A stretch of 64,000 nucleotides of DNA from an uncultured Bacteroidota bacterium (GCA_963700635.1 CAVOYH010000003.1:1248001-1312000), one strand, 5' to 3'; positions 1,142 to 17,213 are shown, counted from the stretch's first letter. Made by a program: numbers and translations. The notes: a model not told the origin generated them from the letters alone.

Positions 1142-1151
1142 GAAGGACGAT

Positions 1152-2549: not shown

Positions 2550-2557
2550 GTGAACGG

Positions 2558-2590
2558 AAAGGGGACGGCAACGTCCCCTTTTCGTTTTTT
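2558..2590 (+). terminator. Rho-independent terminator after the cytochrome genes
   Basis: AAAGGGGACG-GCAA-CGTCCCCTTT hairpin followed by a T-rich tract. Confidence 0.85.
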
Positions 2591-2752
2591 CACTCCTGCA
2601 AACCTATTCTTACAGATTGGAAAGGCCCAGCGGGATCGCCGGTGCAGCCCGCCCAAACCCCCCTCTATTCATCCTATTCGCGTATTTTCCCCCTTCCACC
2701 TATGGCACGCATGTTGAACCATAAAAAGTGATCAAGCACTTCTGGAGTTGGA

Positions 2753-4978
2753 ATGACTGTTCTTGGACAATGGGTACTCGTACTCGCTGGCGCGCTGTCC
2801 CTCTTTTCTGCCGTGAGTTATCTTCGTGCTGCCGCTCATGGCAAACGTCCGCTGGAGACACCCCGCATGCTTATGGTCATCAGCACTGCACTGGTGGTGA
2901 TTGCCTCGGCACTGCTTTATGCACTTCTCCTCTCACATGATTTTTCAAACGGGTATGTTTTTGGCTACAGCGATCGGGCGCTGCCGCTGCACTACCTTCT
3001 GTCCACGTTTTACGCCGGACAGGAGGGGAGCTTTCTGTTCTGGGTGCTCTGCTCTTCTCTGGTGGCAGTAGGCCTTTCCGGATACTCGCGAAAGCGCGAT
3101 GCAGAGGCAGAGGTTATGGCCGTGTTCCTTTTTGTGCAGACGGTCCTGATTGCCCTCACCCTTGCCAAGTCGCCGTTCCGCCTTGTGTGGGATATGTACC
3201 CGGGGATCCCCCTGGGTCAACTTCCGCCCGATGGACGCGGCCTTAATCCACTCCTGCAAAACTTCTGGATGGTTATTCATCCGCCGGTGTTGTTTGTCGG
3301 CTTTGCCCTCATGGCCGTGCCGTTCAGCCAGGCGATCGCCTCGCTGTGGAAAAAGAAATTTAACCTGCTCGCGGAGCAGGCAATCGGCTGGACTCTTTTC
3401 GCGGTGTGTGTGCTTGGTCTCGGCATCATGCTGGGTGCCTACTGGGCATATGGTGTCCTGGGGTGGGGTGGATACTGGGGATGGGATCCTGTGGAAAATT
3501 CCTCGCTGGTCCCGTGGCTGACAGGCATTGCCATGGTACACACCCTGATTGCCCAGCGAAGGACGGGGAAATATATCCGGACGAACTTCGTGTTGGCTGT
3601 TGTCTCGTTCTTTCTCGTCATCTACAGCACATTTCTTACGCGCAGTGGTATCCTCGGTGATGCATCCGTTCATGCGTTCACAGATTCAGGCGCCGAAGTA
3701 TACTGGCTCCTGGTCGGTCTTATGAGTGCCATTCTGATCTCCGGCGGTGCACTCCTTGTGAACCGGCGGAGTTATCTCAAACCGGCGGTCGGAACGGGCG
3801 GTTGGCTTACCCGAGAAACCATGCTGGCCGGCGGGGCGATTGCGCTTCTGATGAGTGCTGCCGTTGTGCTCTTTGGAACAAGTCTTCCGATCTTTTCCAC
3901 AATCCGGGTCGAACCATCGTTTTACGATACCACCAATCTCCCCCTTGCGGTCCTGATGGCGATGCTCATCGGCGTGAGTCTGTATACGCAATGGGAGGAC
4001 CATGACTTCCGCTTCACCGCACAACGGTCATGGAAGATGCTCCTCGCAGCGATCCTTGTTACGGCAGTCTTTTTTATAGCCGGCATGAACGATATATCGA
4101 CGGTTGCGCTCGTCTTTACCGCGTTCTTTGCACTGTTCGTGAATGTGGATATCGGCATCCGCATTGCGAGGGGCGATCCGTGGTTTCTCGGCGGCAAGAT
4201 TGCCCATATCGGCCTGGCCGTGTTTTTTCTCGGTGTGGTTGCCACCGGCAAATACAGCACCAAAGAGCACGTCTCATTACCAAGGGGTACCCCGGTTCAG
4301 GCCCTGAACCATACGCTGACCTATGAGGGGTTTACCGTTACGGAGGATCAGAAGTATGTCTTTAGCGTCCGCGCTCAAAAAGGCGCCGAGTCGTTTGTCC
4401 TTTCGCCGGTGATGTTCGAAGCGGGGGAACAGGGTATCATGCGCAATCCTGATATCGTGGAGGCCATCACGAGTGACTTCTACATGGCTCCCCAGTCTCT
4501 GGAGCCCCCGCAGGACGGCAGCCCTCTTGAGCAGGCCTCACTGGAGAAGGGGAAGTCAGCGGTCATCGACGGCGTGACTGTCACGTTTGTGGATTTCGCC
4601 TCGGGTGATCACGGGGATTCGAAAATGATGGGAGGGGAGGGAACGGTGAGCGTTGCGGCGGTTCTTGAGCTCCAGAAGGGGCCCGAGCGTGAAACGCTGA
4701 AGCCGACCCTGTCGTTTTCGGAGCAAGGGCCGGTCCATCCCGAAGTTGTTTCAAAGCTGCTGGCCGGTGGGGTCCAGCTGCTCACCATGAATGTCAGCAT
4801 GGGCGGCGCCCCGTCCGTCATACAGATCGGCCTGCAGCACAGTGGCGGAGAGAGTTCCCGGCCTGATGTCCTGGTCGTTGAGGCAAGTGTAAAACCCTTT
4901 GTAAGCCTTCTCTGGGCAGGTACCGTGTTAATGATGATTGGCTTCGGATTGGCCATAGTGAAACGTTGGAAGGAATAA
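2753..4978 (+). CDS. ccmF: Cytochrome c biogenesis heme lyase, CcmF/NrfE family
   Basis: GLNPLLQ, IHPP, WGGYWGWDPVEN and FLTRSG motifs; multiple TM segments. Confidence 0.92.
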   Translation: MTVLGQWVLVLAGALSLFSAVSYLRAAAHGKRPLETPRMLMVISTALVVIASALLYALLLSHDFSNGYVFGYSDRALPLHYLLSTFYAGQEGSFLFWVLCSSLVAVGLSGYSRKRDAEAEVMAVFLFVQTVLIALTLAKSPFRLVWDMYPGIPLGQLPPDGRGLNPLLQNFWMVIHPPVLFVGFALMAVPFSQAIASLWKKKFNLLAEQAIGWTLFAVCVLGLGIMLGAYWAYGVLGWGGYWGWDPVENSSLVPWLTGIAMVHTLIAQRRTGKYIRTNFVLAVVSFFLVIYSTFLTRSGILGDASVHAFTDSGAEVYWLLVGLMSAILISGGALLVNRRSYLKPAVGTGGWLTRETMLAGGAIALLMSAAVVLFGTSLPIFSTIRVEPSFYDTTNLPLAVLMAMLIGVSLYTQWEDHDFRFTAQRSWKMLLAAILVTAVFFIAGMNDISTVALVFTAFFALFVNVDIGIRIARGDPWFLGGKIAHIGLAVFFLGVVATGKYSTKEHVSLPRGTPVQALNHTLTYEGFTVTEDQKYVFSVRAQKGAESFVLSPVMFEAGEQGIMRNPDIVEAITSDFYMAPQSLEPPQDGSPLEQASLEKGKSAVIDGVTVTFVDFASGDHGDSKMMGGEGTVSVAAVLELQKGPERETLKPTLSFSEQGPVHPEVVSKLLAGGVQLLTMNVSMGGAPSVIQIGLQHSGGESSRPDVLVVEASVKPFVSLLWAGTVLMMIGFGLAIVKRWKE

Positions 4979-4980
4979 CA

Positions 4981-5235
4981 ATGCAAACGCAAATAACACA
5001 ACGCCTGCCAAACAATGTCGCGGGTAGATATTTCACCACCGAAGAGTGTGATGGATGCGCCTACTGTGCCTCTATCGCGCCGGAAAACTTTGATTTTGAA
5101 AAGGCCAGCAACACATACTTTGTCAGCTGCCAGCCGCGGAACGCGGAAGAAGAAGAGTATATGCAGGAGGCGGCGGATGACTGTCCGGTGGATGCTATTC
5201 GTATAGAAGAAACCGTTGCCGTGAAGTTTGATTGA
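4981..5235 (+). CDS. Single-cluster [4Fe-4S] ferredoxin
   Basis: CDGCAYC...CPVDAI motif; 84 aa, acidic; AAGGAA upstream of ATG 4981. Confidence 0.85.
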   Translation: MQTQITQRLPNNVAGRYFTTEECDGCAYCASIAPENFDFEKASNTYFVSCQPRNAEEEEYMQEAADDCPVDAIRIEETVAVKFD

Positions 5236-5302
5236 TCAGCGGTCCCGACATCCTTCACGGTCTAGCCACGCCACAGAGTGCACAAACGATAGGATGGTTT
5301 CC

Positions 5303-6631
5303 ATGGAATCAAAACCGGACAAGGAAACAAAAACAGACAAGCAGCACCATTCGGTGGAAGCACAACTGATTTACGGACAGATGGATGACCCTCTCTGGGA
5401 TTACAGCCACCATCTCCTGCCGCCGATGTCTTCGTCCGCAACATTCCGGCTGGATAGCGCGCAACGCGGTGCCCAGGGATTCACCGAATTCGCCCACCGC
5501 ACTGACGAAGTGCAGGTGAAGAGCAAAGCCCCGATCTATATCTACGATCGCCTGGGCGAACCGAACAAGGACATGCTCGAGGCGAATCTGGCGTGCGCTG
5601 AAGGCGGTGACATCGCCGTCACATTTGGAAGCGGTATGGCGGCGATCTCCGGGATCCTCGGCATCCTCACGGGTTCAGGCAGCGAAGTGATCGCCCACAA
5701 GGTGCTGTACGGGTGTTCGTACTCGCTGCTGACAAACTGGTATCCCCGTTTGAAGATCAATGTCAAGTTTGTGGATTTCAGCAATCCGCCTGAAGTGGCC
5801 GCAGCCATCACACGGAATACCCGCGTGCTGTATATGGAATCTCCGGTGAACCCCACGATGCGTCTGGTGGATCTCCGTGCAATCACCCAGATTGCGGAAG
5901 AGGCAAACAAGAACCGGGCTGCTGATGAGCGGTTGCATACCGTTGTGGATAACACGTTTGCCTCGCCATTCTGCCAGAGGCCGATCTCCCTCGGGATTGA
6001 TTTTGTAGTACATTCTCTGACAAAAGCGATCGGGGGCTTTGGCACTGATGTCGGAGGCGTCGTCATTGGGCCCCGCTGGAGCCATGACAGACTGATGCTG
6101 TACCGGAAGGACTTTGGCGGAATTTTGTCGGCGAAAAGCGCCTGGCCTGTGCTTGTAGTCGGGCTCCCTTCCCTCGCAGTCCGGATGCGGCAGATGCAGG
6201 CGACCGCTCAACGGGTTGCGGAGTTTCTTGAACAACGTTCCGAATTCGAGAGGGTTCTGTATCCAGGCCTGCAGTCTTTTCCCCAGGCGGATTTAGCCAG
6301 GCGGCAGATGGTCGATTTTGACGGACTCTTCGCGCCGGGCTCGATGATCTACTTTGTCATGAAGGGAAAAACCGCCCGTGATGCACTCAAGCGGGCCGAA
6401 CGGTTTATCGACCACGTTGCACAAGAAGCGTATTGTATCACACTCGCCGTGAGCCTCGGAAATATCAGAACACTCATAGAACACCCCGGCTCCATGACAC
6501 ACTCCGCCATTCCGGCGGAAGAACAGGTCGGGAAGGGCCTTGAACCCGGGGGTGTCCGGCTCGCGGTGGGGCTGGAGAAGCCGGAAGATATCATCAAGGA
6601 TCTGGCGTTTTCTCTTGACGCAACAACGTGA
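5303..6631 (+). CDS. PLP-dependent Cys/Met metabolism enzyme, methionine gamma-lyase-like
   Basis: YxYDR, SGMAAI, LYGC (Cys typical of MGL), DNTF, HSLTK (PLP lysine), LAVSLG and SMTH motifs. Confidence 0.8.
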   Translation: MESKPDKETKTDKQHHSVEAQLIYGQMDDPLWDYSHHLLPPMSSSATFRLDSAQRGAQGFTEFAHRTDEVQVKSKAPIYIYDRLGEPNKDMLEANLACAEGGDIAVTFGSGMAAISGILGILTGSGSEVIAHKVLYGCSYSLLTNWYPRLKINVKFVDFSNPPEVAAAITRNTRVLYMESPVNPTMRLVDLRAITQIAEEANKNRAADERLHTVVDNTFASPFCQRPISLGIDFVVHSLTKAIGGFGTDVGGVVIGPRWSHDRLMLYRKDFGGILSAKSAWPVLVVGLPSLAVRMRQMQATAQRVAEFLEQRSEFERVLYPGLQSFPQADLARRQMVDFDGLFAPGSMIYFVMKGKTARDALKRAERFIDHVAQEAYCITLAVSLGNIRTLIEHPGSMTHSAIPAEEQVGKGLEPGGVRLAVGLEKPEDIIKDLAFSLDATT

Positions 6632-6684
6632 TTGCTCGCATGGCGCGCAGCACTACTGAATAACGAACGCGAGGAGCAGAGCCG

Positions 6685-6975
6685 ATGGCTAAAGGTGCGG
6701 TGACATTCGATATCGAAACCTGCAAAGGATGTGAACTCTGTATCGACGCATGTCCGCAGGGAAGTCTTCAGATCTCTCCCAGGATTAATACCCAGGGGTA
6801 TCATTACGCCGTCCTGATAGAAGACAATTGCACCGGTTGTACGAATTGTGCACTTGTGTGCCCCGATGCCGTGATTACCGTGTACCGTGAAACCAAGAAG
6901 GCAAAAGTTCCTGTTGCACGGATTTCACAGGTGACGGAAAATATTACCGTGACACTGACCGACGAAAGGAAATAG
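6685..6975 (+). CDS. 2-oxoacid:ferredoxin oxidoreductase delta subunit (2x[4Fe-4S])
   Basis: Two CxxCxxCxxxCP motifs; directly upstream of the alpha subunit. Confidence 0.88.
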   Translation: MAKGAVTFDIETCKGCELCIDACPQGSLQISPRINTQGYHYAVLIEDNCTGCTNCALVCPDAVITVYRETKKAKVPVARISQVTENITVTLTDERK

Positions 6976-6977
6976 TC

Positions 6978-8066
6978 GTGGGTGACATTCGACTCATGAA
7001 AGGAAATGAGGCGCTTGCAGAAGCCGCCATCCGCGCCGGCTGCCAGGCCTATTTTGGTTATCCCATCACGCCACAATCAGAGGTGCTGGAGTACCTCGCC
7101 GATGAAGGGCGTAAGCGCGGTATGATTGTCCTGCAGGCGGAAAGCGAAGTGGCGTCTATCAACATGGTCTATGGCGCCGCCGGTGCAGGAGCACGAGTCA
7201 TGACATCATCATCCAGTCCGGGCATGAGCCTGATGATGGAGGGGGTGTCGTATATCGCCTGCGCTGAATTGCCGTGTCTGCTCGTGAATGTGAACAGAGG
7301 GGGACCGGGTCTCGGAACCATCCAGCCTTCTCAGAGCGACTACTTCCAGGCAGTGAAGGGAGGCGGCCATGGTGATTACCGGTTGATCGTGCTTGCCCCC
7401 TCCAGCGTGCATGAAATGGCGGATTTTGTGTATGAGGCGTTTGATCTGGCGGACACCTACCGGAATCCGGTAATGATTCTTACCGACGGCGCACTCGGAC
7501 AGATGATGGAAAAGGTAGAGTTCCGGGAGTATGATCCTGCGCAACATAAGAACCCCAAGCCATGGGCGACCACCGGAAAACCTTCTACCCGTCCGCCGAA
7601 TGTGATTACGTCTCTTCATATGCAAGCCGAAAAGATGGAAGAAGTGAACCGGAAACTTCAGAAGAAATACGCGACGATTCAGGAACGTGAAGTGAGATAT
7701 GAACTCCTGGAAGCGGAGGATGCAGAGTACCTCGTCGTTGCGTACGGGCTGGCGGCCCGGATCGCACACCGCGGCGTGGAAATTGCCCGGGCGAAGGGTC
7801 ACAAGGTCGGACTGCTCCGTCCGATTACGCTGTTTCCCTATCCGAGTACGGTGCTGCAGTCTCTTGCAGCACGTCTACAGGGAATCCTGGTTGTCGAAAT
7901 GAACGCCGGCCAGATGGTGGAGGATGTCCGCCTGGCCGTCGAAGGACGTACGCCGGTCAGTTTCTACGGGCGGATGGGAGGCGTTATCCCGTCTCCTAAC
8001 GAAGTCGCCGATGCTCTGGACCGGATGATCACCAAAACCGTCACACATCCCGTGGAGGCGAACTGA
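6978..8066 (+). CDS. 2-oxoacid:ferredoxin oxidoreductase alpha subunit (VorB-like)
   Basis: MKGNEALAE, FGYPITPQSE, QAESE and RGGPGLG motifs; GTG start. Confidence 0.92.
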   Translation: MGDIRLMKGNEALAEAAIRAGCQAYFGYPITPQSEVLEYLADEGRKRGMIVLQAESEVASINMVYGAAGAGARVMTSSSSPGMSLMMEGVSYIACAELPCLLVNVNRGGPGLGTIQPSQSDYFQAVKGGGHGDYRLIVLAPSSVHEMADFVYEAFDLADTYRNPVMILTDGALGQMMEKVEFREYDPAQHKNPKPWATTGKPSTRPPNVITSLHMQAEKMEEVNRKLQKKYATIQEREVRYELLEAEDAEYLVVAYGLAARIAHRGVEIARAKGHKVGLLRPITLFPYPSTVLQSLAARLQGILVVEMNAGQMVEDVRLAVEGRTPVSFYGRMGGVIPSPNEVADALDRMITKTVTHPVEAN

Positions 8067-8067
8067 C

Positions 8068-8853
8068 ATGGCACAGGAGATTCTGCAGGAGATGATAACA
8101 CCTGATCTCGAGGGGATGGAGTGTGTGTACGAACGTCCGGAAACGCTGCTGGATACGCGGTTCCACTATTGCCCCGGTTGCGGGCACAGTGTTGTCCATC
8201 GTGTCCTGATGGAGGTGATCCAGGAGCTCGGGATTACAGACAAGACCGTGGGTATCGCACCGGTGGGATGTTCGGTTCTGGCATATCATTACATGGGTAT
8301 TGACATGCAGGAAGCCGCGCACGGACGGGCGAGTGCTGTGGCGACCGCCGTCAAGCGGATTCTCCCGGACCGGTTTGTATTTTCCTATCAGGGTGACGGC
8401 GACCTCGCCGCCATCGGCACAGCCGAGACCATTCATACGTGTAACCGAGGCGAAAACATCTTGATGATCTTTATCAACAATGGGATTTATGGGATGACCG
8501 GCGGTCAGATGGCACCCACGACGCTGCTCGGGATGAAGACATCCACATCGCCGGCAGGGCGGACCGTGGAAACGGCCGGTCACCCGCTGAAGATTACCGA
8601 GCTGGTAGCACAGCTCCCCGGCGTTGCCTATGTCACGCGTCAGTCGGTTCACGCACCCAATGCCGTGCGTCAGCTGAAAAAATCTCTGACCAAGGCATTT
8701 CAATATCAGAAAGAATCACGAGGGACCTGTTTCATCGAGGTCGTATCCAATTGCCCGTCGGGATGGAAAATGACGCCCGCCGAGTCCAATACGTGGCTCG
8801 TGGAAAACATGTTTCCAGTCTATCCGCCCGGTGATCTCCGGACACCACAATAA
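8068..8853 (+). CDS. 2-oxoacid:ferredoxin oxidoreductase beta (TPP-binding) subunit
   Basis: YCPGCGH, GDGD and NNGIYGMTGGQ TPP-binding motifs. Confidence 0.92.
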   Translation: MAQEILQEMITPDLEGMECVYERPETLLDTRFHYCPGCGHSVVHRVLMEVIQELGITDKTVGIAPVGCSVLAYHYMGIDMQEAAHGRASAVATAVKRILPDRFVFSYQGDGDLAAIGTAETIHTCNRGENILMIFINNGIYGMTGGQMAPTTLLGMKTSTSPAGRTVETAGHPLKITELVAQLPGVAYVTRQSVHAPNAVRQLKKSLTKAFQYQKESRGTCFIEVVSNCPSGWKMTPAESNTWLVENMFPVYPPGDLRTPQ

Positions 8854-8891
8854 GGACGATTATCAAGCTGACCGAGAACAAAGGATCTGTT

Positions 8892-9443
8892 ATGACTCAT
8901 GAAATGCTCATTGCGGGTTTTGGCGGCCAGGGTGTGTTGTCGATGGGAATGACTCTCGCCTATGCCGGCATGATCGAAGGGAAGGAAATCACCTGGATGC
9001 CTTCCTACGGTCCCGAAATGCGCGGCGGTACGGCGAATTGTATTGTCATTGTGTCGGATCAACGGATTAATTCGCCGATCGTCACAACGTTCGATACCGT
9101 CATCGCACTGAACCAGCCGTCCCTTGACAAGTTTGAACAGGCTGTAAAACCCGGTGGACTGCTTCTGTACGATTCCACAAGTACGATCACGCCGCCAACA
9201 CGGACGGATATTCAGTTGCTCGGCATTCCGGCGGGCGACGAAGCGGTGAAACTCAAAAACACGAAGGTGTTGAACATGATCGTGCTCGGGGCCTTCCTCG
9301 ACCGGTCGCATGTCCTGGATATGTCGGCAATTCTCAAAGCCCTGAGCAAAGTTCTTCCGGAACGGTATCACCATCTCCTTCCGGTCAATGAGCAGGCGCT
9401 CCGGCGTGGCGTGGAGCTCTCAGGTCAACCCGTGTCAGCGTAA
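8892..9443 (+). CDS. 2-oxoacid:ferredoxin oxidoreductase gamma subunit
   Basis: AGFGGQGV and PSYGPEMRGG motifs. Confidence 0.92.
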   Translation: MTHEMLIAGFGGQGVLSMGMTLAYAGMIEGKEITWMPSYGPEMRGGTANCIVIVSDQRINSPIVTTFDTVIALNQPSLDKFEQAVKPGGLLLYDSTSTITPPTRTDIQLLGIPAGDEAVKLKNTKVLNMIVLGAFLDRSHVLDMSAILKALSKVLPERYHHLLPVNEQALRRGVELSGQPVSA

Positions 9444-9508
9444 GCGGCCGGGGGTAGTGGAAAAGACAACGTACTCACGAAGTGGATTCGTCCGGAGGAG
9501 AGGATTCT

Positions 9509-9757
9509 ATGGCCCCACCATGCGTACATTCCTGCAAAGGGTTGTGTAACGCGTTAAAAGCCGCTGAACACCGTGAAAAAGAGAATCTTGCTGAATACCG
9601 GCGTTTTGCTGCGGAGTGTGACTACCCTGAGGTGAAGCAGATCCTGGATTCACTCGTTGCCGAGCGTGAGCAAACGCTGGTCATGCTCAAAGAAAAACGG
9701 GAGATCCTTGCCCAGAAGTTCGAAGTCATTGATCGTATCAACGACAGTTTCGCGTGA
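9509..9757 (+). CDS. Small ferritin/rubrerythrin-like two-helix protein with degenerate ligands
   Basis: Strong RBS (GGAGGAGAGG). ALxxAxxxExxxxxxY...ILxxLxxE helical pattern; N-terminal CVHSCKGLC. Confidence 0.6.
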   Translation: MAPPCVHSCKGLCNALKAAEHREKENLAEYRRFAAECDYPEVKQILDSLVAEREQTLVMLKEKREILAQKFEVIDRINDSFA

Positions 9758-9760
9758 CCC

Positions 9761-10012
9761 ATGGCACACCCACCGCACGATAAACTGAATTGGACCGATT
9801 TGTCGATCCAGGATATTCTCGAGCTCGCTATCGAGGACGAAATTGAGGCACGCGATTACTATACGACTGCGGCCGACCACGCAGGAGACAGCAACACCCG
9901 GCGCATGTTGCTCGAGCTTGCCGGGATGGAGCAGGGACATGCCGATGTGCTTCGCAAGGAGCTGGAAGACCTCCGGCTGCAGCGGGATCTGGAAACGGGA
10001 ATGGCTGACTGA
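9761..10012 (+). CDS. Small ferritin/rubrerythrin-family protein (half four-helix bundle)
   Basis: AIEDEIEARDYY...LAGMEQGH gives one E...ExxH di-iron half-site; 83 aa. Confidence 0.78.
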   Translation: MAHPPHDKLNWTDLSIQDILELAIEDEIEARDYYTTAADHAGDSNTRRMLLELAGMEQGHADVLRKELEDLRLQRDLETGMAD

Positions 10013-10090
10013 GCCGTACCGGTATCATCGGCACGAACGTCCCCATAGTCACCCTCAAGCATAATCACGAAACGGAGCCCCGATCGATCT

Positions 10091-11209
10091 ATGAGCAAAT
10101 ACACTATTGCATGGCTGCCTGGTGATGGGATTGGTAATGATGTGATGGAGGCTACCCGGCTTGTTCTGGACCGTATTCATCTGGACGCCGAATATATTCA
10201 CGGGGATATCGGGTGGGAATTCTGGTGTAAAGAGGGAGAGGCGTTCCCGCAGCGCACGACCGAGCTCCTTGGCCGGGTACACGCCGCCATGTTCGGCGCC
10301 ATTACCTCCAAGCCGGTAAAAGCCGCGGAAGCGGAACTCGTGCCCGAACTCAGGGGAAAAGGCCTCATCTATCGCTCTCCCATCGTCCGGATGCGGCAGA
10401 TGTTTGATCTGTATACCTGCCTTCGTCCGTGTAAGGCCTATGCCGGAAACCCCTTGAACCTGAAAGACGGAATCGATCTGGTTGTCTTCCGTGAAAACAC
10501 CGAGGACCTCTATGCCGGAGTTGAATTCCATCCCGTTCCCAAAGAACTCGCAGGTGTGCTGGAGAAGCTCTCGAAGCCGTTTCATGTGTTCAAAGATATC
10601 CCCTCCGACCAGTATGCTATTTCCTGCAAAGTGAATACCCAGAAGGGATCTGAACGGATTGTGAGGGCGGCGTTCGAGTTTGCAAAGAAACACAAGCGCC
10701 GCAAAGTGACCGTCGTGCATAAGGCGAACGTTGTCCGGGCGACCGATGGGCTCTTTCTGGAAGAAGCGAGGAAGGTCGCCCGTGCGTATCCCGACATTCA
10801 GTTTGACGAAGCCAACGTGGATGCCATTTGTATGTGGTTGCTTAAAAACCCGTTCAATTATGAAGTACTCGTCGCACCAAACCTCTATGGCGATATCATC
10901 TCCGATCTGGCCGCCCAGATGGTCGGCGGGCTTGGTTTCGGTTGCTCGGGGAATATCGGCCAGAAACTTGCCGTGTTTGAACCTTCGCACGGTTCCGCCC
11001 CCAAGTATGCAGGCCAGTATAAAGTGAACCCGATCGCCACCATCCTCGCGGCAAAAATGATGCTGGACTGGCTGGGGGAGACCGAAAAGGGGATTCAACT
11101 CGAGCGCGCAACGGCAGCCGTCATCAAGGAAGGCCGCGTCCGTACATACGACATGGGCGGGTCCAGCTCCACAATGGAGATGGCAGAAGCCATTAACGCA
11201 CACCTATGA
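10091..11209 (+). CDS. Isocitrate/isopropylmalate/homoisocitrate dehydrogenase family protein
   Basis: PGDGIG, RENTEDLY, HKANV, NLYGDIISD and FEPSHGSAP motifs. Confidence 0.92.
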   Translation: MSKYTIAWLPGDGIGNDVMEATRLVLDRIHLDAEYIHGDIGWEFWCKEGEAFPQRTTELLGRVHAAMFGAITSKPVKAAEAELVPELRGKGLIYRSPIVRMRQMFDLYTCLRPCKAYAGNPLNLKDGIDLVVFRENTEDLYAGVEFHPVPKELAGVLEKLSKPFHVFKDIPSDQYAISCKVNTQKGSERIVRAAFEFAKKHKRRKVTVVHKANVVRATDGLFLEEARKVARAYPDIQFDEANVDAICMWLLKNPFNYEVLVAPNLYGDIISDLAAQMVGGLGFGCSGNIGQKLAVFEPSHGSAPKYAGQYKVNPIATILAAKMMLDWLGETEKGIQLERATAAVIKEGRVRTYDMGGSSSTMEMAEAINAHL

Positions 11210-12117
11210 GTCCAACAGGGCTCATACTGCACGAGGTCGGACTCCGGGATGGACTTCAAATGGAACACACACCCGTTCCGACCGAAAAAAAGATTCAGTG
11301 GGTCAGAGAGCTCGCAGCAACCGGACTGGATGTCCTCCAGGTAGGCTCCTTCGTCCATCCGACGAAGGTTCCGCAGATGGCTGACACGGATGAGCTTTTC
11401 CGGCAGCTGATGGTGCCCGGCATGATGCCCCCGAGTGTGGTTCTTTCCGGCCTCGTGCTGAACGAGAAGGGACTCGAACGCGGACTGACCTGCGGCGTCC
11501 CCATGTTCTGCATGGGGGTATCGGCAAGTGAGACACACAGTAAGAAAAACACCGGCATGTCGGTATCGGAAGCGACGGACCGGATACTTGCGATGGGAAA
11601 ACTGGCGTTGCAGGAAAACCGCTCAGTACAGGTTTCCGTGCAATCGGCGTTCGGTTGCGGGTACGAAGGCCACGTTACCCCGGAGCGCGTCGTGTCTATC
11701 GTGAGCCGCTACATCGAAAACGGGTTCGTGCATATCAGTCTTGCCGATACCGCCGGCCATGCAACACCGGATCTGGTGGAGACACTTTTTACAACCATCA
11801 GCAAACTCGACGGCGCTGCTGAATTTGCCTGCCACTTCCACAATACATACGGCATGGCCATCGCCAATTGTCTTGCCGCCAGACGTGCGGGGGTACGCTC
11901 GTTCGAGTCGTCCGTCGCCGGCCTCGGCGGCTGTCCGTTCACAAAGGTTGCCGGTGGAAACGTGTGCACGGAAGATTTTGTGCACATGCTGCACCGCATG
12001 GGAATGCGTACTGATGTGCGGCTTGAGGGATTGATTGCGGTCGCACAGGATGTGGCATCTTTTTTCAATCGGGAAATGCCCGGGATGGTTTACAAGACGG
12101 GACCAATAAGGTCGTAA
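11206..12117 (+). CDS. HMG-CoA lyase-like (DRE-TIM) acyl-CoA lyase
   Basis: EVGLRDGLQ, SFVHPxKVPQMAD, AFGC, HFHNTYG and GLGGCPF...GNVCTED motifs; ATGA-type overlap with the upstream gene. Confidence 0.9.
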   Translation: MSPTGLILHEVGLRDGLQMEHTPVPTEKKIQWVRELAATGLDVLQVGSFVHPTKVPQMADTDELFRQLMVPGMMPPSVVLSGLVLNEKGLERGLTCGVPMFCMGVSASETHSKKNTGMSVSEATDRILAMGKLALQENRSVQVSVQSAFGCGYEGHVTPERVVSIVSRYIENGFVHISLADTAGHATPDLVETLFTTISKLDGAAEFACHFHNTYGMAIANCLAARRAGVRSFESSVAGLGGCPFTKVAGGNVCTEDFVHMLHRMGMRTDVRLEGLIAVAQDVASFFNREMPGMVYKTGPIRS

Positions 12118-12119
12118 CG

Positions 12120-13325
12120 ATGACCGCACACCGCTCACTCCTTGCCGGTATCCGCGTTCTGGACCTCACGAACGTTCTCTCCGGGCCATTTGCCACCTTG
12201 CATCTTGCACTGCTCGGCGCGGAAGTGATCAAGATCGAGAATCCAAAAGACGGAGACCTGGCGCGCAAACTCGGTTGTGTTCCAAAGTATAACCAGATGC
12301 TCATGGGCACCAGCTTTCTTGCCCAGAACGCCAACAAGAAGTCTCTGACGCTCAATCTCAAATCCGCTGAAGGAAAAGAGATTTTCGAGAAATTGGTGGC
12401 GACAGCGGACGTTGTTGTGGAGAATTTCCGCCCCGATGTTATGGGCCGGCTGGGATTGTCGTACGATGTGCTTCGTGGTATCAATCCCCGGCTGATCTAT
12501 TGCGGGATTTCAGGCTTCGGACAGCATGGCCCGGACGCGCTAAAACCTGCATATGACCAGATCATCCAGGGCTTAAGCGGTGAGATGGCCATCAACGGTG
12601 ACGAGCGGCTGAGCCCCCTGCGCGCGGGCTTCCCGGTCTGTGATACCGTAGGCGGATTGAATGCCGCATTTGCCATCATGGCTGCTCTTTTCTGGCGCGA
12701 GCGCACGGGCGAGGGCCAATCGGTTGATGTGGCACTTCTGGACTCCATCATGCCGCTGATGGGGTGGGTCGTGGCAAATCTTATGATCGGCGGTCAACAA
12801 CCGGTTCTTATGGGGAATGACAACTTTACGGCTGCACCATCGGGTGTGTTCGCGACTCAGGATGGATTCATCAACATCGCAGCGAACAAGCAGGAGCAGT
12901 GGGAAGCGGTAGCGGATGTGCTCGGCCTCCCCGGGCTGAAAACAGATCCCCGGTTTCAGGAACGTGATACTCGCAAAAAGAACCGCAAGGCCCTGACACC
13001 ATTGCTCGAGGAAAAACTGAAGGACCACAACACCGCATTTTGGGTGGAAGTTCTTAATGCGCACGATGTTCCTTCCGGCGCCATATTAACTCTTGAACAA
13101 TCAATGCATCAGCCTCAGGTCGAACACCGCAAGACATTTGGAACGGTCGACGTGGAAGGTATCGGCACAATTCCGCTGTTCAACCTGACTGCCAAATTCG
13201 AAAAGACGCCCGGGATGGTTGTAACCCCGCCTCCAAAACTTGGAGAGCACAACGGAGAGATCCTGAAGTCTCTTGGTTATGAGGAAGCGCAGATTGCCGG
13301 TCTCAAAGGCCGTAACGTCATTTAG
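12120..13325 (+). CDS. Family III (CaiB/BaiF) CoA transferase
   Basis: LAGIRVLDL, GAEVIKIE, NKKS, ENFRP and ISGFG motifs; candidate catalytic Asp in VCDTVGG. Confidence 0.92.
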   Translation: MTAHRSLLAGIRVLDLTNVLSGPFATLHLALLGAEVIKIENPKDGDLARKLGCVPKYNQMLMGTSFLAQNANKKSLTLNLKSAEGKEIFEKLVATADVVVENFRPDVMGRLGLSYDVLRGINPRLIYCGISGFGQHGPDALKPAYDQIIQGLSGEMAINGDERLSPLRAGFPVCDTVGGLNAAFAIMAALFWRERTGEGQSVDVALLDSIMPLMGWVVANLMIGGQQPVLMGNDNFTAAPSGVFATQDGFINIAANKQEQWEAVADVLGLPGLKTDPRFQERDTRKKNRKALTPLLEEKLKDHNTAFWVEVLNAHDVPSGAILTLEQSMHQPQVEHRKTFGTVDVEGIGTIPLFNLTAKFEKTPGMVVTPPPKLGEHNGEILKSLGYEEAQIAGLKGRNVI

Positions 13326-13359
13326 GAGAGAACCTGGAAACATCACCACGAGGTCGTGT

Positions 13360-14649
13360 ATGGGAATGACAATTGTTGAAAAGATCCTTGCGCGCGCCAG
13401 TGCACAAAAAGCGGTCAGGGCCGGTGACGTCCTGGAACCGCGTGTTGATCTTGCAATGTCGCATGAGAATGCCGCACTTGTCATCAATCAGTTTCTTGAG
13501 ATCTACAAAGGCACAGGGCTTGAACCGACGGTCTGGGATCCCTCACGTGTGGCCATCATCTTTGACCACAGGGTGCCTGCAGAATCGGCGAAAACGGCAA
13601 CCAACCAGAAGAAGGTGCGCGAATTTGTTGCACGCCACATGATCAAGAAGTTTCATGACATCCGGGGCGACAGGGGTGGGATCTGCCACCAGATCCTCCC
13701 CGAAAGCGGATACGTGCGTCCGGGCTCCGTGGTGGTCGGCACCGATTCCCACACCACGAGTCATGGTGCGCTCGGAGCGTTTGCTTTTGGCATCGGAGCG
13801 ACGGAGATGGCCAGCGTATGGACTCTGGGGTATGCAGTGAACGTTGAGGTCCCGGCAACCATAAAGGTGGAAGTGACGGGTGACTTTCCCCGTATGGTCA
13901 GTCCGAAAGACCTGATTCTTCATGTGATCGGCACACTGTCGGCCCAGGGAGCGAACTTCCGCGTCATCGAGTTTCATGGCCCGACAATCAGTCGCATGTC
14001 CACGTCCGGCCGTCTGGTGATCTGTAATATGTCCGTCGAAGCAGGCGCGACCTCCGGTATCGTTCCGGCTGACGCGGAAACAGAGTCCTATCTCCGCGAA
14101 GAGGCGGGAGTTCAGGACCCGATAATTCCGGTGCTGCCCGATCCGGATGCGGTGTATGAAAAGACAGTTACGTTCGATGTTTCAAAACTCACACCGCAGG
14201 TCGCGTGTCCTCATACGGTTGATAATGTGAAGTCCGTTGAGCTGGTCTCCGGGACGCGCATCCATCAGGTGGTCATCGGTTCCTGCACCAACGGGCGGCT
14301 GGACGACATTGCCGCCGCCGCCGCGATCGTCCGGGGGAAAAGTGTCGCGTCCACGACGAGAATGCTGGTCTTTCCGGCCTCGGGCAGGATATATCAACGG
14401 GCCCTGGAGCACGGGTATGTGGCCGATCTCATCGGCGCCGGTGCCGTCGTGATGAATCCGGGATGCGGCCCGTGTCTCGGCATTCATGAAGGTGCGTTAG
14501 GCGATGGTGAAGTGGCCCTGTCCACAACCAACAGAAACTTCAAGGGACGGATGGGAAATCCGACCGCGGAAGTGTATCTCTGTTCTCCGGCCGTTGCGGC
14601 TGCATCGGCGATCGCCGGCGAAATAACCGATCCAAGGAAGGGGGCGTAA
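13360..14649 (+). CDS. 3-isopropylmalate dehydratase/homoaconitase large subunit family
   Basis: FDHRVP, GICHQ, DSHT, GSCTNGR, CGPCLG and STTNRNFKGRMG motifs. Confidence 0.92.
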   Translation: MGMTIVEKILARASAQKAVRAGDVLEPRVDLAMSHENAALVINQFLEIYKGTGLEPTVWDPSRVAIIFDHRVPAESAKTATNQKKVREFVARHMIKKFHDIRGDRGGICHQILPESGYVRPGSVVVGTDSHTTSHGALGAFAFGIGATEMASVWTLGYAVNVEVPATIKVEVTGDFPRMVSPKDLILHVIGTLSAQGANFRVIEFHGPTISRMSTSGRLVICNMSVEAGATSGIVPADAETESYLREEAGVQDPIIPVLPDPDAVYEKTVTFDVSKLTPQVACPHTVDNVKSVELVSGTRIHQVVIGSCTNGRLDDIAAAAAIVRGKSVASTTRMLVFPASGRIYQRALEHGYVADLIGAGAVVMNPGCGPCLGIHEGALGDGEVALSTTNRNFKGRMGNPTAEVYLCSPAVAAASAIAGEITDPRKGA

Positions 14650-14654
14650 AGGCC

Positions 14655-15170
14655 ATGGCGAAAGTGGTGTACTCCATCGGTGACGATATTTCGACAGATG
14701 TTATCTATCCCGGCCGTTACATGGCAACCGTACTGCCAACGGAAACCCCTCAGTTTGCGTTTGCCGATGATGCCGCATTCAACGACCAGCTCAGGAACAA
14801 ACAGATTCCTCCGGGAAGTATCATTGCCGCCGGCGGGAACTTTGGATGTGGCTCTTCCCGCGAGCAGGCGGTATCCACCCTGAAGGGATATGACCTTGTG
14901 ATCGTGGCACGCAGCATTGCGCGTATTTTTATGCAGAACGCGGTCAACCTGGGACTACGGCTGGTTGTTGCACCCGGCTGGGAAGCGTCCGCGGGTGACG
15001 ACATCGAATTGGCGGAGGAGCATGTGGTCAACCGGACAACAGGCCAGCGGTATACAATCGAGCGTCTTCCCCGCGCACGGCAGGCGATCGTCGATGCAGG
15101 CGGTCTGATTTCGTATACACGCAAGCGACTCGTTGAAGGATCCACTCTCACTCCCCCGACACGAGGCTGA
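14655..15170 (+). CDS. 3-isopropylmalate dehydratase/homoaconitase small subunit family
   Basis: DDISTDVIYPGRY, NFGCGSSREQA and ARIFxxNAVNLG motifs. Confidence 0.92.
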   Translation: MAKVVYSIGDDISTDVIYPGRYMATVLPTETPQFAFADDAAFNDQLRNKQIPPGSIIAAGGNFGCGSSREQAVSTLKGYDLVIVARSIARIFMQNAVNLGLRLVVAPGWEASAGDDIELAEEHVVNRTTGQRYTIERLPRARQAIVDAGGLISYTRKRLVEGSTLTPPTRG

Positions 15171-15180
15171 CGAGGATATC

Positions 15181-15645
15181 ATGGAAGCTGCTGAACACCC
15201 TACTGTCCGAACAAAATCTTTCACGTACAAGACCGGCACGACGTGGACGGATGGACGTGCCGGGACGCTGGCGTCGGAAGGCAAGCCCACCCTCCGCATA
15301 TCAAGTCCGCCGGAATTCAAGGGCGAACGGGGCGTATGGACGCCGGAGGATCTGTTTGTCGGCGCTGTGGAAGTATGCCATATGACGACGTTTCTCGCAT
15401 TCGCCGGGCAGCGAAAGATCAACGTCCTCTCGTACAAGAGCCATGCCAATGGTGTGCTGGAGTTCATTGACGGAGACTATCGATTCACCCGCATCGTGAT
15501 ATTTCCGACGATCACGGTCGGGAACGCGGTGGTGGAGACAGAGGTCCATACCCTCCTGCGTGAGGCCGAAAAACACTGCCTGGTCGCGAATTCGATTGCG
15601 TCGATCGTTGAAGTGAATCCGACAATTGTCGTTCAGCCCGGATGA
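15181..15645 (+). CDS. OsmC/Ohr family protein
   Basis: PPEFKG..WTPEDLF motif and two conserved Cys (EVCHMTTF, KHCLVANS). Confidence 0.85.
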   Translation: MEAAEHPTVRTKSFTYKTGTTWTDGRAGTLASEGKPTLRISSPPEFKGERGVWTPEDLFVGAVEVCHMTTFLAFAGQRKINVLSYKSHANGVLEFIDGDYRFTRIVIFPTITVGNAVVETEVHTLLREAEKHCLVANSIASIVEVNPTIVVQPG

Positions 15646-15717
15646 CTTCGGCGGGCGAATCCGTGATTTGATTTTACCCCGCCAATATGGTATACTGTAT
15701 GCGTGAGCAATAAGTTT

Positions 15718-17109
15718 ATGGGACGACCGTTCTTGAATATCGATGTTGACCTTCTAAAGAAGTACGACAGGCCGGGACCACGATACACCAGTTATCCGAC
15801 CGCCCCCATCTTCCAGCCCACGTTCACCGCCGCAAATTTTCGGGATGAAATCCTTGCCACAAACCCTCCCGGGGCGAGTGACGACATTTCGCTGTATGTC
15901 CATATCCCTTTCTGCGACACCCTCTGTTTTTTCTGTGGATGTACGATGTTGGTGACACGGGACCGGAACCGGATCGATGAGTATGTACGGTACCTGAAGG
16001 TAGAAATTACGCGTGTGGCCGAGCTTGTTGCTCCCGGCCGGCGCGTAACACAACTGCACTGGGGGGGTGGTACGCCAACCCATCTTTCACCGGATCAGAT
16101 TCTGGATATCGCCGGAGCACTCCGTTCGGCATTTGTTTTTGCGCCGGATGCAGAATGTAGTGTCGAAATTGACCCGCGGGAGCTTGACCGCCGCCATCTG
16201 GAGGCGCTTGCAGAAGCAGGCTTCAACCGCATGAGCATGGGGGTGCAGGATTTTGAACTGCAAGTGCAGGCCGCAGTCAACCGGATCCAACCGGAGTGGA
16301 TCTCGCGCCAGGTCTATGGGTGGGCGAGAGAACTCGGTTTCTCGAGTATCAATATCGATTTAATGTACGGCCTGCCGCATCAAACGGTGGATTCATTCGA
16401 GCGCACCATTCGGGGAATCATCACCTATAACCCCGACAGAATTGCGGTCTTCAACTATGCGCACGTCCCGTGGCTGAAACCACACCAGAAGTTGATCCAG
16501 CAGGATATGCTGCCATCTCCCGAATCCAAACTTGACATACTGAAGATGACGATCGAGCTCCTCACAGAGGGCGGTTATGAGTACATCGGAATGGATCACT
16601 TTGCCAAACCTGAAGATGAACTTGCCAGGGCGCGGGAAAGCCGCACGCTGTACCGCAACTTCCAGGGATACTCGACCAAAGCCGGCGCGGACCTCTACGG
16701 TTTTGGCATGTCATCCATCAGCCACTTCCAGAACGTCTACGCACAGAACACCAAAATCCTCCCTGACTACTACAAAGCTCTCGATGCAGGGACGCTGGCA
16801 ACAATTCTCGGATACCGGATGACCCCGGATGATCATCTGCGCAAGCATGTCATCATGCGCCTGATGTGCGATCTGGAGCTGGACATGGGATCGGTCGAAC
16901 GGCAGTTCGGAATCCGGTTTGCGGAGTATTTTGCCACGGCACTCAAAGCCCTGGTTCCACTGGAACAGGATGGATTGGTCGAGTGTACATCTGACCGGAT
17001 AGTGATTGTCGGTCCGGGTCGATTACTTCTGCGCAATATTGCGATGTGTTTTGACGCATATCTCGAACGCCTCAGCAAAGAAAAACCCATCTTCTCCCGC
17101 ACCGTTTGA
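15718..17109 (+). CDS. hemN: Oxygen-independent coproporphyrinogen III oxidase (radical SAM)
   Basis: GPRYTSYPT, YVHIPFCDTLCFFCGC, HWGGGTP, IGMDHFA and RNFQGYST motifs. Start may be 15703. Confidence 0.93.
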   Translation: MGRPFLNIDVDLLKKYDRPGPRYTSYPTAPIFQPTFTAANFRDEILATNPPGASDDISLYVHIPFCDTLCFFCGCTMLVTRDRNRIDEYVRYLKVEITRVAELVAPGRRVTQLHWGGGTPTHLSPDQILDIAGALRSAFVFAPDAECSVEIDPRELDRRHLEALAEAGFNRMSMGVQDFELQVQAAVNRIQPEWISRQVYGWARELGFSSINIDLMYGLPHQTVDSFERTIRGIITYNPDRIAVFNYAHVPWLKPHQKLIQQDMLPSPESKLDILKMTIELLTEGGYEYIGMDHFAKPEDELARARESRTLYRNFQGYSTKAGADLYGFGMSSISHFQNVYAQNTKILPDYYKALDAGTLATILGYRMTPDDHLRKHVIMRLMCDLELDMGSVERQFGIRFAEYFATALKALVPLEQDGLVECTSDRIVIVGPGRLLLRNIAMCFDAYLERLSKEKPIFSRTV

Positions 17110-17213
17110 ATACTGCTTCGTTTGCGCGGGGGATCGTGCGCGCAAACCGGATAGAAGGAGAGAGCTTGCTTATTCTCTTTCGAAGTGCGATATTAAAACC
17201 AAAGACCCACCGT

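Follow-up and report, generated by a model that had tools for sequence, protein, structure and literature searches.

A conserved, synthase-free five-gene operon that may run 2-oxoacid elongation backwards, possibly in lysine catabolism, in mostly uncultured bacterial phyla

What can a bacterium do with the isomerase and the dehydrogenase of a 2-oxoacid elongation pathway when no synthase is encoded beside them? This question is raised by a five-gene operon at positions 10091-15170 of a 64,000-nucleotide (nt) stretch of DNA, hereafter the window, from an uncultured Bacteroidota bacterium of the class Ignavibacteria (GCA_963700635.1 CAVOYH010000003.1:1248001-1312000). On one strand (+), and in this order, the operon encodes a beta-decarboxylating dehydrogenase, an acyl-CoA lyase of the HMG-CoA lyase family (HMG, 3-hydroxy-3-methylglutaryl; CoA, coenzyme A), a family III CoA-transferase, and the large and small subunits of an aconitase-type dehydratase. 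The dehydrogenase and lyase genes overlap by 4 nt and the remaining gaps within the core measure 2, ~35 and 5 nt; LeuA, CimA and homocitrate synthase are all absent from the cluster. A first-pass annotation of the window had described just such a co-directional, closely spaced and synthase-free run, and we recovered its genes, order and spacing as described. We propose, with somewhat better than even confidence, that the operon encodes a self-contained catabolic module in which a synthase-free 2-oxoacid elongation cycle would run backwards. The further assignment of 2-oxoadipate, derived from lysine via 2-aminoadipate, as its substrate is tentative, and we would stop short of calling it probable. 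Below, L-numbers denote loci, G-numbers genomes (G000 being the window genome) and C-numbers contigs; NCBIfam and Pfam scores are given in bits against the cut-off of the model, equivalog models being stricter than subfamily models.

We searched species genomes with the window lyase, which returned 80 loci at 55-76% identity, and metagenomes with the lyase of locus L085, which returned another 80, for 160 loci in both sets together; members of the resulting lyase family share 55-77% identity with the window lyase. A complete set of five was seen in 38 of the 80 genome loci and in 24 of the 80 metagenome loci, with the window order kept in 36 and 23 of these, respectively; contig ends or short contigs explain most of the remaining loci in both sets. 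Judged by record titles, the loci span at least 10 phyla, including Ignavibacteriota, Bacteroidota, Acidobacteriota, Gemmatimonadota, Zixibacteria and Calditrichota, with further loci in Chloroflexota, Synergistota, Elusimicrobiota and Verrucomicrobiota. Two short regions are almost unchanged across this range: all 51 small-subunit orthologs share the recognition loop [YF]MATV, and 53 of 54 dehydrogenase orthologs have exactly the helix YRSPIVRMRQ. These are the two regions that would be expected to contact the variable side chain of the substrate. The flanks yielded no recurrent Pfam family among 136 co-directional open reading frames (ORFs), the commonest being amidase with 7 members; a second flank set of 147 ORFs was sampled by scanning 10, and ORF calling in the loci relied on a simple longest-ORF rule, so that some neighbours may be missing. 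The association of the five genes is far beyond chance. The cross-genome conservation of the core, which had been marked for checking, is borne out, and the real unit is the five genes at 10091-15170, a conserved synthase-free module.

At the level of individual enzymes, no core protein attains an NCBIfam equivalog cut-off, and the lyase and dehydratase pass subfamily-level models only. The lyase exceeds the HMG-CoA-lyase model NF004283 (276.5 against 246), a subfamily-level and not an equivalog match, and has no synthase C-terminal domain. Its motifs RDGLQ, HFHNT and GGCP align with the solved HMG-CoA lyases 1ydo and 6nds (best 1ydo, 198 bits), and we take their Arg-Asp, His-x-His and Gly-Gly-Cys-Pro residues to be catalytic. 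We propose that this enzyme splits a 2-substituted malyl-CoA. The PF02515 match of the CoA-transferase spans residues 8-378; its best NCBIfam model is succinate--glutarate CoA-transferase (NF052585), whose equivalog cut-off is missed (301 against 750), and among solved proteins it is closest to 10uh (253 bits) and, second, to human succinate--hydroxymethylglutarate CoA-transferase 9br6 (246 bits). Its proposed task would be to activate the 2-substituted malate. Among characterised enzymes, the nearest relatives are accordingly glutarate and HMG enzymes for the transferase, and homoisocitrate and isocitrate enzymes for the dehydrogenase.

These affinities raise the possibility of an ordinary HMG-CoA lyase working with a succinate:HMG CoA-transferase (EC 4.1.3.4 and SUGCT, EC 2.8.3.13) in leucine or ketone-body metabolism, beside leucine-type genes that are unrelated neighbours. 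The NF004283 match, the kept catalytic motifs, the close relation of solved HMG enzymes to both proteins (closest for the lyase, among the closest for the transferase), and the lyase being the sole HMG-lyase-type gene of the window genome all fit such a pair. However, in a tree of 110 lyases (FastTree only) the operon family forms a clade with support 100 on a long stem, a separate lineage not grouped with characterised HMG-CoA lyases. The genes moreover keep a single order from phylum to phylum, their frames overlapping or almost touching, in a five-gene context that is neither leucine-catabolic nor ketogenic, and they are joined with an aconitase-type isomerase and a beta-decarboxylating dehydrogenase, for which we see, by reasoning, no chemical link to HMG and no use in its chemistry. 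The transferase reaches only 301 of the 750 bits of the glutarate equivalog. We consider an ordinary HMG pathway very remote.

A closer functional parallel is the Chloroflexus pair EC 2.8.3.20 and EC 4.1.3.46, which belongs to the identical two protein families, is encoded by genes lying side by side, and likewise activates a 2-substituted malate before cleaving it to acetyl-CoA and a 2-oxoacid. Of 401 Chloroflexota genomes screened for Mct, a marker of the 3-hydroxypropionate bi-cycle, 21 were positive, and we searched five of these. Their HMG-lyase-family genes are 31-39% identical to the window lyase; those that adjoin a family III transferase reach 31-37%, the transferase itself being ~33% identical to that of the window. 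We take this Chloroflexota pair to be Sct/Ccl from its gene arrangement. No dehydrogenase or dehydratase match lies within ~1.5 kilobases (kb) on either side of it, and the Chloroflexota lyases fall as the outgroup of the operon clade in the tree, their transferase likewise lying outside the operon family. By these comparisons there is no orthology between the operon enzymes and the presumed citramalate enzymes of Chloroflexus. The analogy drawn in the first-pass annotation consequently survives as one of logic and function and not as one of descent.

The dehydrogenase stays below every equivalog model of its family: AksF2 homoisocitrate dehydrogenase, its top NCBIfam model (335 against 540), AksF (289 against 500), LeuB (194 against 353) and the best isocitrate dehydrogenase model (293 against 510). 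Its top solved relatives are NAD-isocitrate dehydrogenases, with Thermus homoisocitrate dehydrogenase also among the top ones. In an alignment with three paralogs of the window genome, its motif HGSAPKYAGQ shares a Lys-Tyr pair with the equivalog-grade NADP-isocitrate dehydrogenase, where LeuB and the NAD-type paralog have Asp-Ile. This pair is presumably the cofactor-choice site, after work on E. coli isocitrate dehydrogenase, and we predict that the operon enzyme uses NADP(H). It keeps the Arg-Ser pair of isocitrate dehydrogenases and shares an insertion with NADP-isocitrate dehydrogenase. The substrate Asn of isocitrate dehydrogenases (Ser-x-Asn motif) is replaced by Ile, and its helix has Ile-Val at the place of the Leu-Leu of LeuB.

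The dehydratase is of the archaeal LeuC/HacA type. Its large subunit passes the subfamily models NF001614 (543 against 385), hacA_fam (504 against 386) and IPMI_arch (513 against 410), misses the equivalogs HacA_Meth (463 against 550) and LEU2 (430 against 611), and shows the Cys motifs GSCTNGR and CGPC in its translation; the small subunit passes LEUD_arch (114.7 against 109), misses leud (102 against 246) and contains a GSSRE motif.

Combining the chemistry of these families, we propose a four-step route. A 2-oxoacid R-CH2-CO-COOH would be reductively carboxylated to a 3-substituted malate by the NADPH-type dehydrogenase, and the Fe-S dehydratase pair would isomerise this to the 2-substituted malate. 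The family III CoA-transferase would then place CoA on the carboxymethyl arm, the donor probably being succinyl-CoA or acetyl-CoA, and the HMG-CoA-lyase-type enzyme would cleave the ester to acetyl-CoA and a 2-oxoacid one carbon shorter. Such a sequence would conserve the thioester, consume no ATP and fix one CO2 per turn. With 2-oxoadipate as input it would proceed through homoisocitrate, homocitrate and homocitryl-CoA to 2-oxoglutarate and acetyl-CoA, that is, the upper alpha-aminoadipate pathway reversed. Speculatively, a neighbouring 2-oxoacid:ferredoxin oxidoreductase (OFOR) could convert 2-oxoglutarate to succinyl-CoA and regenerate the CoA donor.

Does the operon fill a gap in biosynthesis instead? 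The window genome carries a canonical leuA (767 against 532)-leuC-leuD-leuB (470 against 353)-ilvE operon on contig C4, which answers the flagged question of separate leucine genes, together with citrate synthase, a mitochondrial-type aconitase, an NADP-isocitrate dehydrogenase and a third isocitrate-dehydrogenase-like gene. The five-gene operon is not the genome's leucine or tricarboxylic acid (TCA) set. We further compared 201 Ignavibacteria genomes, of which 18 are carriers (lyase ortholog with at least 55% identity) and 183 are not; the genomes are related and not independent, and co-occurrence counts in this class overstate accordingly. A LeuA-type synthase occurs in six carriers, the only ones with IlvC, and the other 12, which are 95-100% complete, have kept the operon with neither LeuA nor IlvC. 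These 12 therefore cannot make branched-chain amino acids, so that branched-chain biosynthesis is not the general role of the operon. LysA lies over the cut-off in 12 of the 18 carriers, the window genome among them, and citrate synthase is present in 16. Given these counts, no amino-acid or 2-oxoglutarate biosynthetic gap accounts for the operon. In the class as a whole, any LeuA-type synthase was found in just 45 of 201 genomes, and most of the class looks auxotrophic for branched-chain amino acids; in genus g32, all three genomes are without a citrate synthase match at 99-100% completeness.

Two roles of this kind were considered and rejected. An isoleucine-gap role, suggested by the window genome, in which neither CimA nor an IlvA-like gene was found, was dropped as a general role after the LeuA and IlvC counts and that of a Thr-dehydratase-like gene (6 of 18 carriers, 78 of 183 others), and replacement of citrate synthase was dropped on its presence in 16 of the 18 carriers.

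Forward, thioester-conserving elongation for Ile, Leu or Lys biosynthesis deserves separate attention, for without thioester hydrolysis the overall reaction lies near equilibrium, by a rough estimate from textbook TCA values that was not computed, and the lack of CimA and IlvA in the window genome would suit it. In common with the LeuA/CimA-LeuCD-LeuB route, the operon offers isomerase and dehydrogenase chemistry; unlike it, the operon is synthase-free, misses the Leu equivalogs, and occurs in the 12 carriers without LeuA and IlvC, in which 2-oxobutyrate or 2-oxoisocaproate would be useless for biosynthesis. Further points against the forward direction are the LysA count, the NADP-type motif of the dehydrogenase, the presence in three to four carriers (G065, G055, G160, G076) of LeuA plus a second LeuA-type synthase, presumably CimA, and an aldehyde dehydrogenase beside the operon in some loci, which acts catabolically only. 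We judge forward elongation highly improbable, and as a general role towards Ile or Leu, the alternative once offered for this locus, it gives way to the carrier counts. The operon probably runs reductively, by reductive carboxylation: this direction is favoured by the NADP-type motif, by the absence of a biosynthetic gap and by the irreversible aldehyde dehydrogenase that adjoins the operon in three loci. The backward reading of the first-pass annotation is in this respect strengthened.

Run reductively, the module could also resemble a branch of the reductive TCA cycle, in which 2-oxoglutarate, supplied by the OFOR as 2-oxoglutarate synthase, would pass through isocitrate, citrate and citryl-CoA to oxaloacetate and acetyl-CoA. 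The Lys-Tyr motif, the insertion, the Arg-Ser pair and the NAD-isocitrate dehydrogenases at the top of the solved relatives speak for such a substrate, and citrate, the 3-carboxy analogue of HMG, would suit the relatives of transferase and lyase. Like the operon's proposed route, citryl-CoA synthetase/lyase and citrate lyase, which serve reductive TCA variants, cleave a 2-substituted malate via its CoA (or acyl carrier protein) ester after reductive carboxylation; unlike it, they belong to different protein families, and their substrate probably differs too. The isocitrate-binding Asn is Ile in the operon enzyme, the small-subunit loop has no Arg, the OFOR misses the cut-offs of the 2-oxoglutarate models, the genome already has citrate synthase, aconitase and NADP-isocitrate dehydrogenase of its own, and citrate synthase is not anti-correlated with the operon among the carriers. 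The citrate route appears barely tenable.

Which 2-oxoacid, then, enters the proposed reverse route? Gene context provides the strongest substrate clue. In L085 (Elusimicrobia), an aldehyde dehydrogenase, an AlaDh_PNT-type lysine-ketoglutarate-reductase-like gene and a saccharopine dehydrogenase gene lie directly upstream of the operon and co-directional with it. In L112, an aldehyde dehydrogenase of the L085 type precedes the operon and a class-III aminotransferase begins 29 nt downstream. The operon of L049 (Anaerolineae), with main-type loop (FMATV) and main-type helix, comes after genes for a DAO-family oxidase and an aldehyde dehydrogenase; the latter reaches 512-605 bits with solved members of the antiquitin / aminoadipate-semialdehyde dehydrogenase / Pcd group, compared with at most 239 bits for other solved aldehyde dehydrogenases. 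The three loci therefore combine three different enzyme types that could make aminoadipate semialdehyde, each with a dehydrogenase that would make 2-aminoadipate. Since an aminoadipate-semialdehyde dehydrogenase adjoins the operon in three loci of two phyla, 2-oxoadipate is pointed to as the input, and the earlier choice of 2-oxobutyrate and citramalate as best-supported substrate loses its place. The L085 and L112 lyases nest within the operon lyase family (FastTree), and nearly all family-invariant residues are retained in the two loci (lyase, 87 of 93; transferase, 160 of 168; dehydrogenase, 155 of 171), with the dehydrogenase Arg kept in L112. The glutarate-type or tricarboxylate substrates of the closest characterised relatives point the same way.

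Comparison with the upper alpha-aminoadipate pathway of Thermus and fungi and with methanogen Aks is instructive here. Dehydratase and dehydrogenase families are common to both, with hacA_fam passed and AksF2 as the top model, and the intermediates would be identical if the operon substrate is 2-oxoadipate. In contrast to that pathway, the operon has a CoA-transferase and a lyase in place of homocitrate synthase, its proposed direction is the reverse, and NADPH is its predicted cofactor; its enzymes also miss the equivalogs.

In the window genome itself, an AlaDh_PNT-type reductase-like gene and a saccharopine dehydrogenase gene are adjacent at C4:289375-292050 (L110:6376-9051), with 44% and 38% identity to their L085 counterparts. 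Both are on the plus strand; a single small gene separates them from an amino-acid permease gene upstream. No ALDH7-type dehydrogenase ortholog was found in this genome, the best aldehyde dehydrogenase match being 36% identical (C1:270119).

Several observations weigh against 2-oxoadipate. The lysine context occurs in 3 of 160 loci. Within Ignavibacteria, an ortholog of the L085 aldehyde dehydrogenase (55-60% identity) is present in none of the 18 carriers and in 19 of 62 non-carriers, and by hand count a LYS9-type saccharopine dehydrogenase (at least 200 bits) is found in 2 of 18 carriers versus ~34 of 183 others; the lysine link fails within this class. Ignavibacteria either reach 2-aminoadipate via a non-orthologous aldehyde dehydrogenase, which is possible because the window genome has the upstream pair without an ALDH7 ortholog, or their operon takes another 2-oxoacid. 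The dehydratases of L085 and L112 belong to another lineage (50% and 38% identity to that of the window, loop F-L-N-I), and their substrate could differ from that of the main type. The Met-gamma-lyase-like gene and VorB-type OFOR beside the operon in the window point to 2-oxobutyrate or branched 2-oxoacids. At the residue level, the dehydrogenase has Val at the position of Arg85 of Thermus homoisocitrate dehydrogenase, with an Arg one residue later. The recognition loop Y-M-A-T-V of the small subunit, compared with YLVY in 3vba (isopropylmalate/citramalate isomerase), YLRT in 2pkp (methanogen homoaconitase) and YNLT in 1v7l (P. horikoshii), keeps the Thr and has Ala in place of the homoaconitase Arg, leaving no Arg for a distal carboxylate.

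This loop Arg is not universal among homoaconitases, because the P. horikoshii subunit (YNLT, no Arg) can replace the Thermus homoaconitase subunit (PMC7308503). Arabidopsis small subunits that take long side chains carry small loop residues (AACTF, YGTLI), against FLTLV for Leu (PMC7308503). By analogy, the small Ala-Thr residues of the operon loop would fit a side chain bigger than methyl. Overall, the residue-level clues to the substrate look mixed.

The same reverse mechanism might instead be promiscuous, or retuned by lineage, taking whichever host 2-oxoacids carry a beta-CH2 group: 2-oxoadipate in Elusimicrobia and Anaerolineae, and 2-oxobutyrate, 2-oxoisocaproate or others in Ignavibacteria. 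The varied context, with lysine genes in L085, L112 and L049 versus Met-gamma-lyase and OFOR in family f1, would be explained, as would the lack of co-occurrence of the aminoadipate route in Ignavibacteria and the swapped dehydratase in L085 and L112; the likeness of the Ala-Thr loop to the Arabidopsis long-side-chain subunits (PMC7308503) would also be consistent with it. The invariance of loop and helix across phyla argues, however, for one defined substrate, and L049, with its main-type loop, nonetheless adjoins an aminoadipate-semialdehyde dehydrogenase. We regard a promiscuous or retuned module as unlikely, though as an alternative to be taken seriously.

The window's own neighbours (Table 1) bear on two further substrates. 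The core is set off by a 78-nt gap from an upstream block that contains the Met-gamma-lyase-like gene, the OFOR genes and two small genes, and the start of the large subunit at 13360 was taken from the beginning of its profile alignment.

Table 1. Genes in and around the five-gene operon, with coordinates in the window
Feature	Position	Strand	Family match
Met-gamma-lyase-like pyridoxal phosphate enzyme	5303-6631	+	PF01053, 313 bits
Ferredoxin (OFOR delta)	6685-6975	+	4Fe-4S dicluster families
OFOR alpha	6978-8066	+	PF01855; PF17147 also found in OFOR
OFOR beta	8068-8853	+	PF02775
OFOR gamma	8892-9443	+	PF01558
hyp91, 91-amino-acid protein	9482-9757	+	no Pfam family
rbr83, 83-amino-acid rubrerythrin-like protein	9761-10012	+	PF02915
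Beta-decarboxylating dehydrogenase, isocitrate/homoisocitrate/isopropylmalate family	10091-11209	+	PF00180, 290 bits
HMG-CoA-lyase-family acyl-CoA lyase, 303 amino acids	11206-12117	+	PF00682, 144 bits
Family III CoA-transferase	12120-13325	+	PF02515, 402 bits
Dehydratase large subunit, aconitase family	~13360-14649	+	PF00330, 328 bits
Dehydratase small subunit	14655-15170	+	PF00694
OsmC-like protein	15178-15645	+	PF02566

The Met-gamma-lyase-like protein misses the MGL equivalog TIGR01328 (325 against 550), and its translation has a Tyr-Gly-Cys motif, which we assume to be meaningful for methionine gamma-lyase. An ortholog is found in 96 of the 201 class genomes, in 9 of 18 carriers versus 87 of 183 non-carriers, and it stands beside the operon in 12 of 80 genome loci, all of family f1. 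This gene is a neighbour and not a conserved part of the module, contrary to its first assignment as a module partner. The OFOR alpha subunit passes the VorB subfamily model NF005507 (549 against 399), which does not define a substrate. Its ortholog occurs in 17 of 18 carriers versus 91 of 183 non-carriers, and vorB is beside the operon in 15 of 80 genome loci. Two layouts are seen, upstream and co-directional (f1-type) or downstream and convergent (L153, L158 and partly L152, with the coordinates in G160 also giving the convergent layout). The OFOR is a likely partner of the operon, though a looser one. The reported position beside Met gamma-lyase and OFOR holds in the window, but this joint adjacency is limited to one lineage.

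If the module ran on 2-oxobutyrate from Met, Thr or propionyl-CoA, CO2 addition would give 3-methylmalate, then (R)-citramalate and citramalyl-CoA, and finally pyruvate and acetyl-CoA. The Met-gamma-lyase-like gene and the VorB-type OFOR, directly upstream and co-directional in the window and its family, would suit this route, as would the failure to find CimA or an IlvA-like gene in the window genome, and EC 2.8.3.20 with EC 4.1.3.46 offers a published chemical precedent (PMC8307300). Neither Met-gamma-lyase nor the Thr-dehydratase-like gene co-occurs with the operon in the counts above, however, and the enzymes, which resemble HMG-CoA lyase and glutarate/HMG CoA-transferase more than the presumed Chloroflexus pair, are no orthologs of the latter; the lysine contexts would be left unaccounted for. 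This makes the citramalate route improbable.

Leucine catabolism would start from 2-oxoisocaproate and CO2 and lead via 3-isopropylmalate, 2-isopropylmalate and its CoA ester to 2-oxoisovalerate and acetyl-CoA, the OFOR then forming isobutyryl-CoA. Consistent with it are the VorB subfamily match, the 17 of 18 carriers with an OFOR and its two adjacent arrangements, the Ile-Val at LeuB's Leu-Leu place, and the 12 carriers without LeuA and IlvC, which presumably import branched-chain amino acids. Leucine catabolism would also be in keeping with a butyryl-CoA:acetate-CoA-transferase-like gene (304 against 675 bits) that lies between the Met-gamma-lyase-like gene and the OFOR at L022:2981-4315 and in six sister f1 loci, and is absent at the corresponding place in the window. 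Yet the LeuB, LeuC and LeuD equivalogs are missed by wide margins, the OFOR is common without the operon, and the lysine contexts again find no explanation. We think a leucine role quite improbable, and 2-oxoadipate remains our preferred, if tentative, substrate.

The two small genes of the upstream block appear to belong with the OFOR. In 15 of 80 genome loci the gene after vorC is hyp91; where the OFOR is convergent, in L153 and L158, vorC is likewise succeeded by a weak hyp91 match with 30-31% identity (at ~12559-12918 and ~12532-12858, respectively). Together, hyp91 and rbr83 may travel with the OFOR as extra subunits or protectors. The OsmC-like gene directly downstream of the core recurs at this place in 5 of the 80 genome and 2 of the 80 metagenome loci; in the window, hemN comes next. 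A promoter and terminator scan of 4800-17300 gave counts as in shuffles (7 versus 7.2 and 15 versus 11.2), uninformative on co-transcription either way; its sole suggestive pair lies directly before hemN, with a promoter-like site bearing a TG extension at 15668-15696. The listed sequencing runs include no RNA run with this sequence; one DNA run contains 0.09 of its words. Farther out, the window encodes two multihaem cytochromes (one with a Geobacter-type CxxxxCH motif) and a CcmF-like protein at 8-4978, and at 17106-21199 a 1153-amino-acid Reg_prop/PAS histidine kinase with a LuxR-type response regulator.

Some loci depart from the window layout. Four acidobacterial loci (L041, L079, L080 and L089) have the order large subunit, small subunit, lyase, transferase and no dehydrogenase close by, and the L041 genome is without a close dehydrogenase ortholog (best match 51% over half the length). 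Seven loci have an amidase gene 2-3.5 kb upstream. In Zixibacteria, L073:3820-6125 holds a ROK-family gene and a PrpB-like gene of the phosphoenolpyruvate mutase/isocitrate lyase family (218 against 354 bits) between transferase and dehydratase, L077:12248-14552 has two ORFs at the same insertion place, and a dehydrogenase ortholog (78% identity) of the L073 genome is on another contig. An insertion of the L073 type may provide an alternative exit from the 3-substituted malate. In four low-G+C (guanine plus cytosine) Ignavibacteria loci (L052, L061, L063 and L081), small genes resembling 23S-rRNA intervening sequences or bAvd are inserted between core genes.

A full-text literature search, with part of PMC and the supplements outside it, returned no account of this gene set, of homocitryl-CoA, or of a reductive route from 2-oxoadipate, and likewise no description of a homocitrate CoA-transferase or a homocitryl-CoA lyase. 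The part families and the logic are known; what would be new is their combination, plus at least two implied enzyme activities. Our reading from sequence is that the operon could represent an undescribed, ATP-free and thioester-conserving form of lysine catabolism in mostly uncultured phyla, built on the upper alpha-aminoadipate pathway in reverse, a proposal that we advance with less than even confidence. If it is true, two novel activities, homocitrate CoA-transferase and homocitryl-CoA lyase, are needed, and 2-oxoadipate gains a new fate beside the known ones, oxidative decarboxylation and HglS. The module also lends itself as a template for synthetic pathways that incorporate CO2 or edit chain length. 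Automatic annotation labels the five genes as leucine or HMG-CoA genes, which, if our reading is true, distorts metabolic reconstructions of Ignavibacteria, Acidobacteria, Gemmatimonadota, Zixibacteria and others. These organisms would then possess a new central-metabolic module assembled from familiar parts, by which one carbon unit could be removed from a 2-oxoacid as acetyl-CoA in a reversible and energy-neutral manner.

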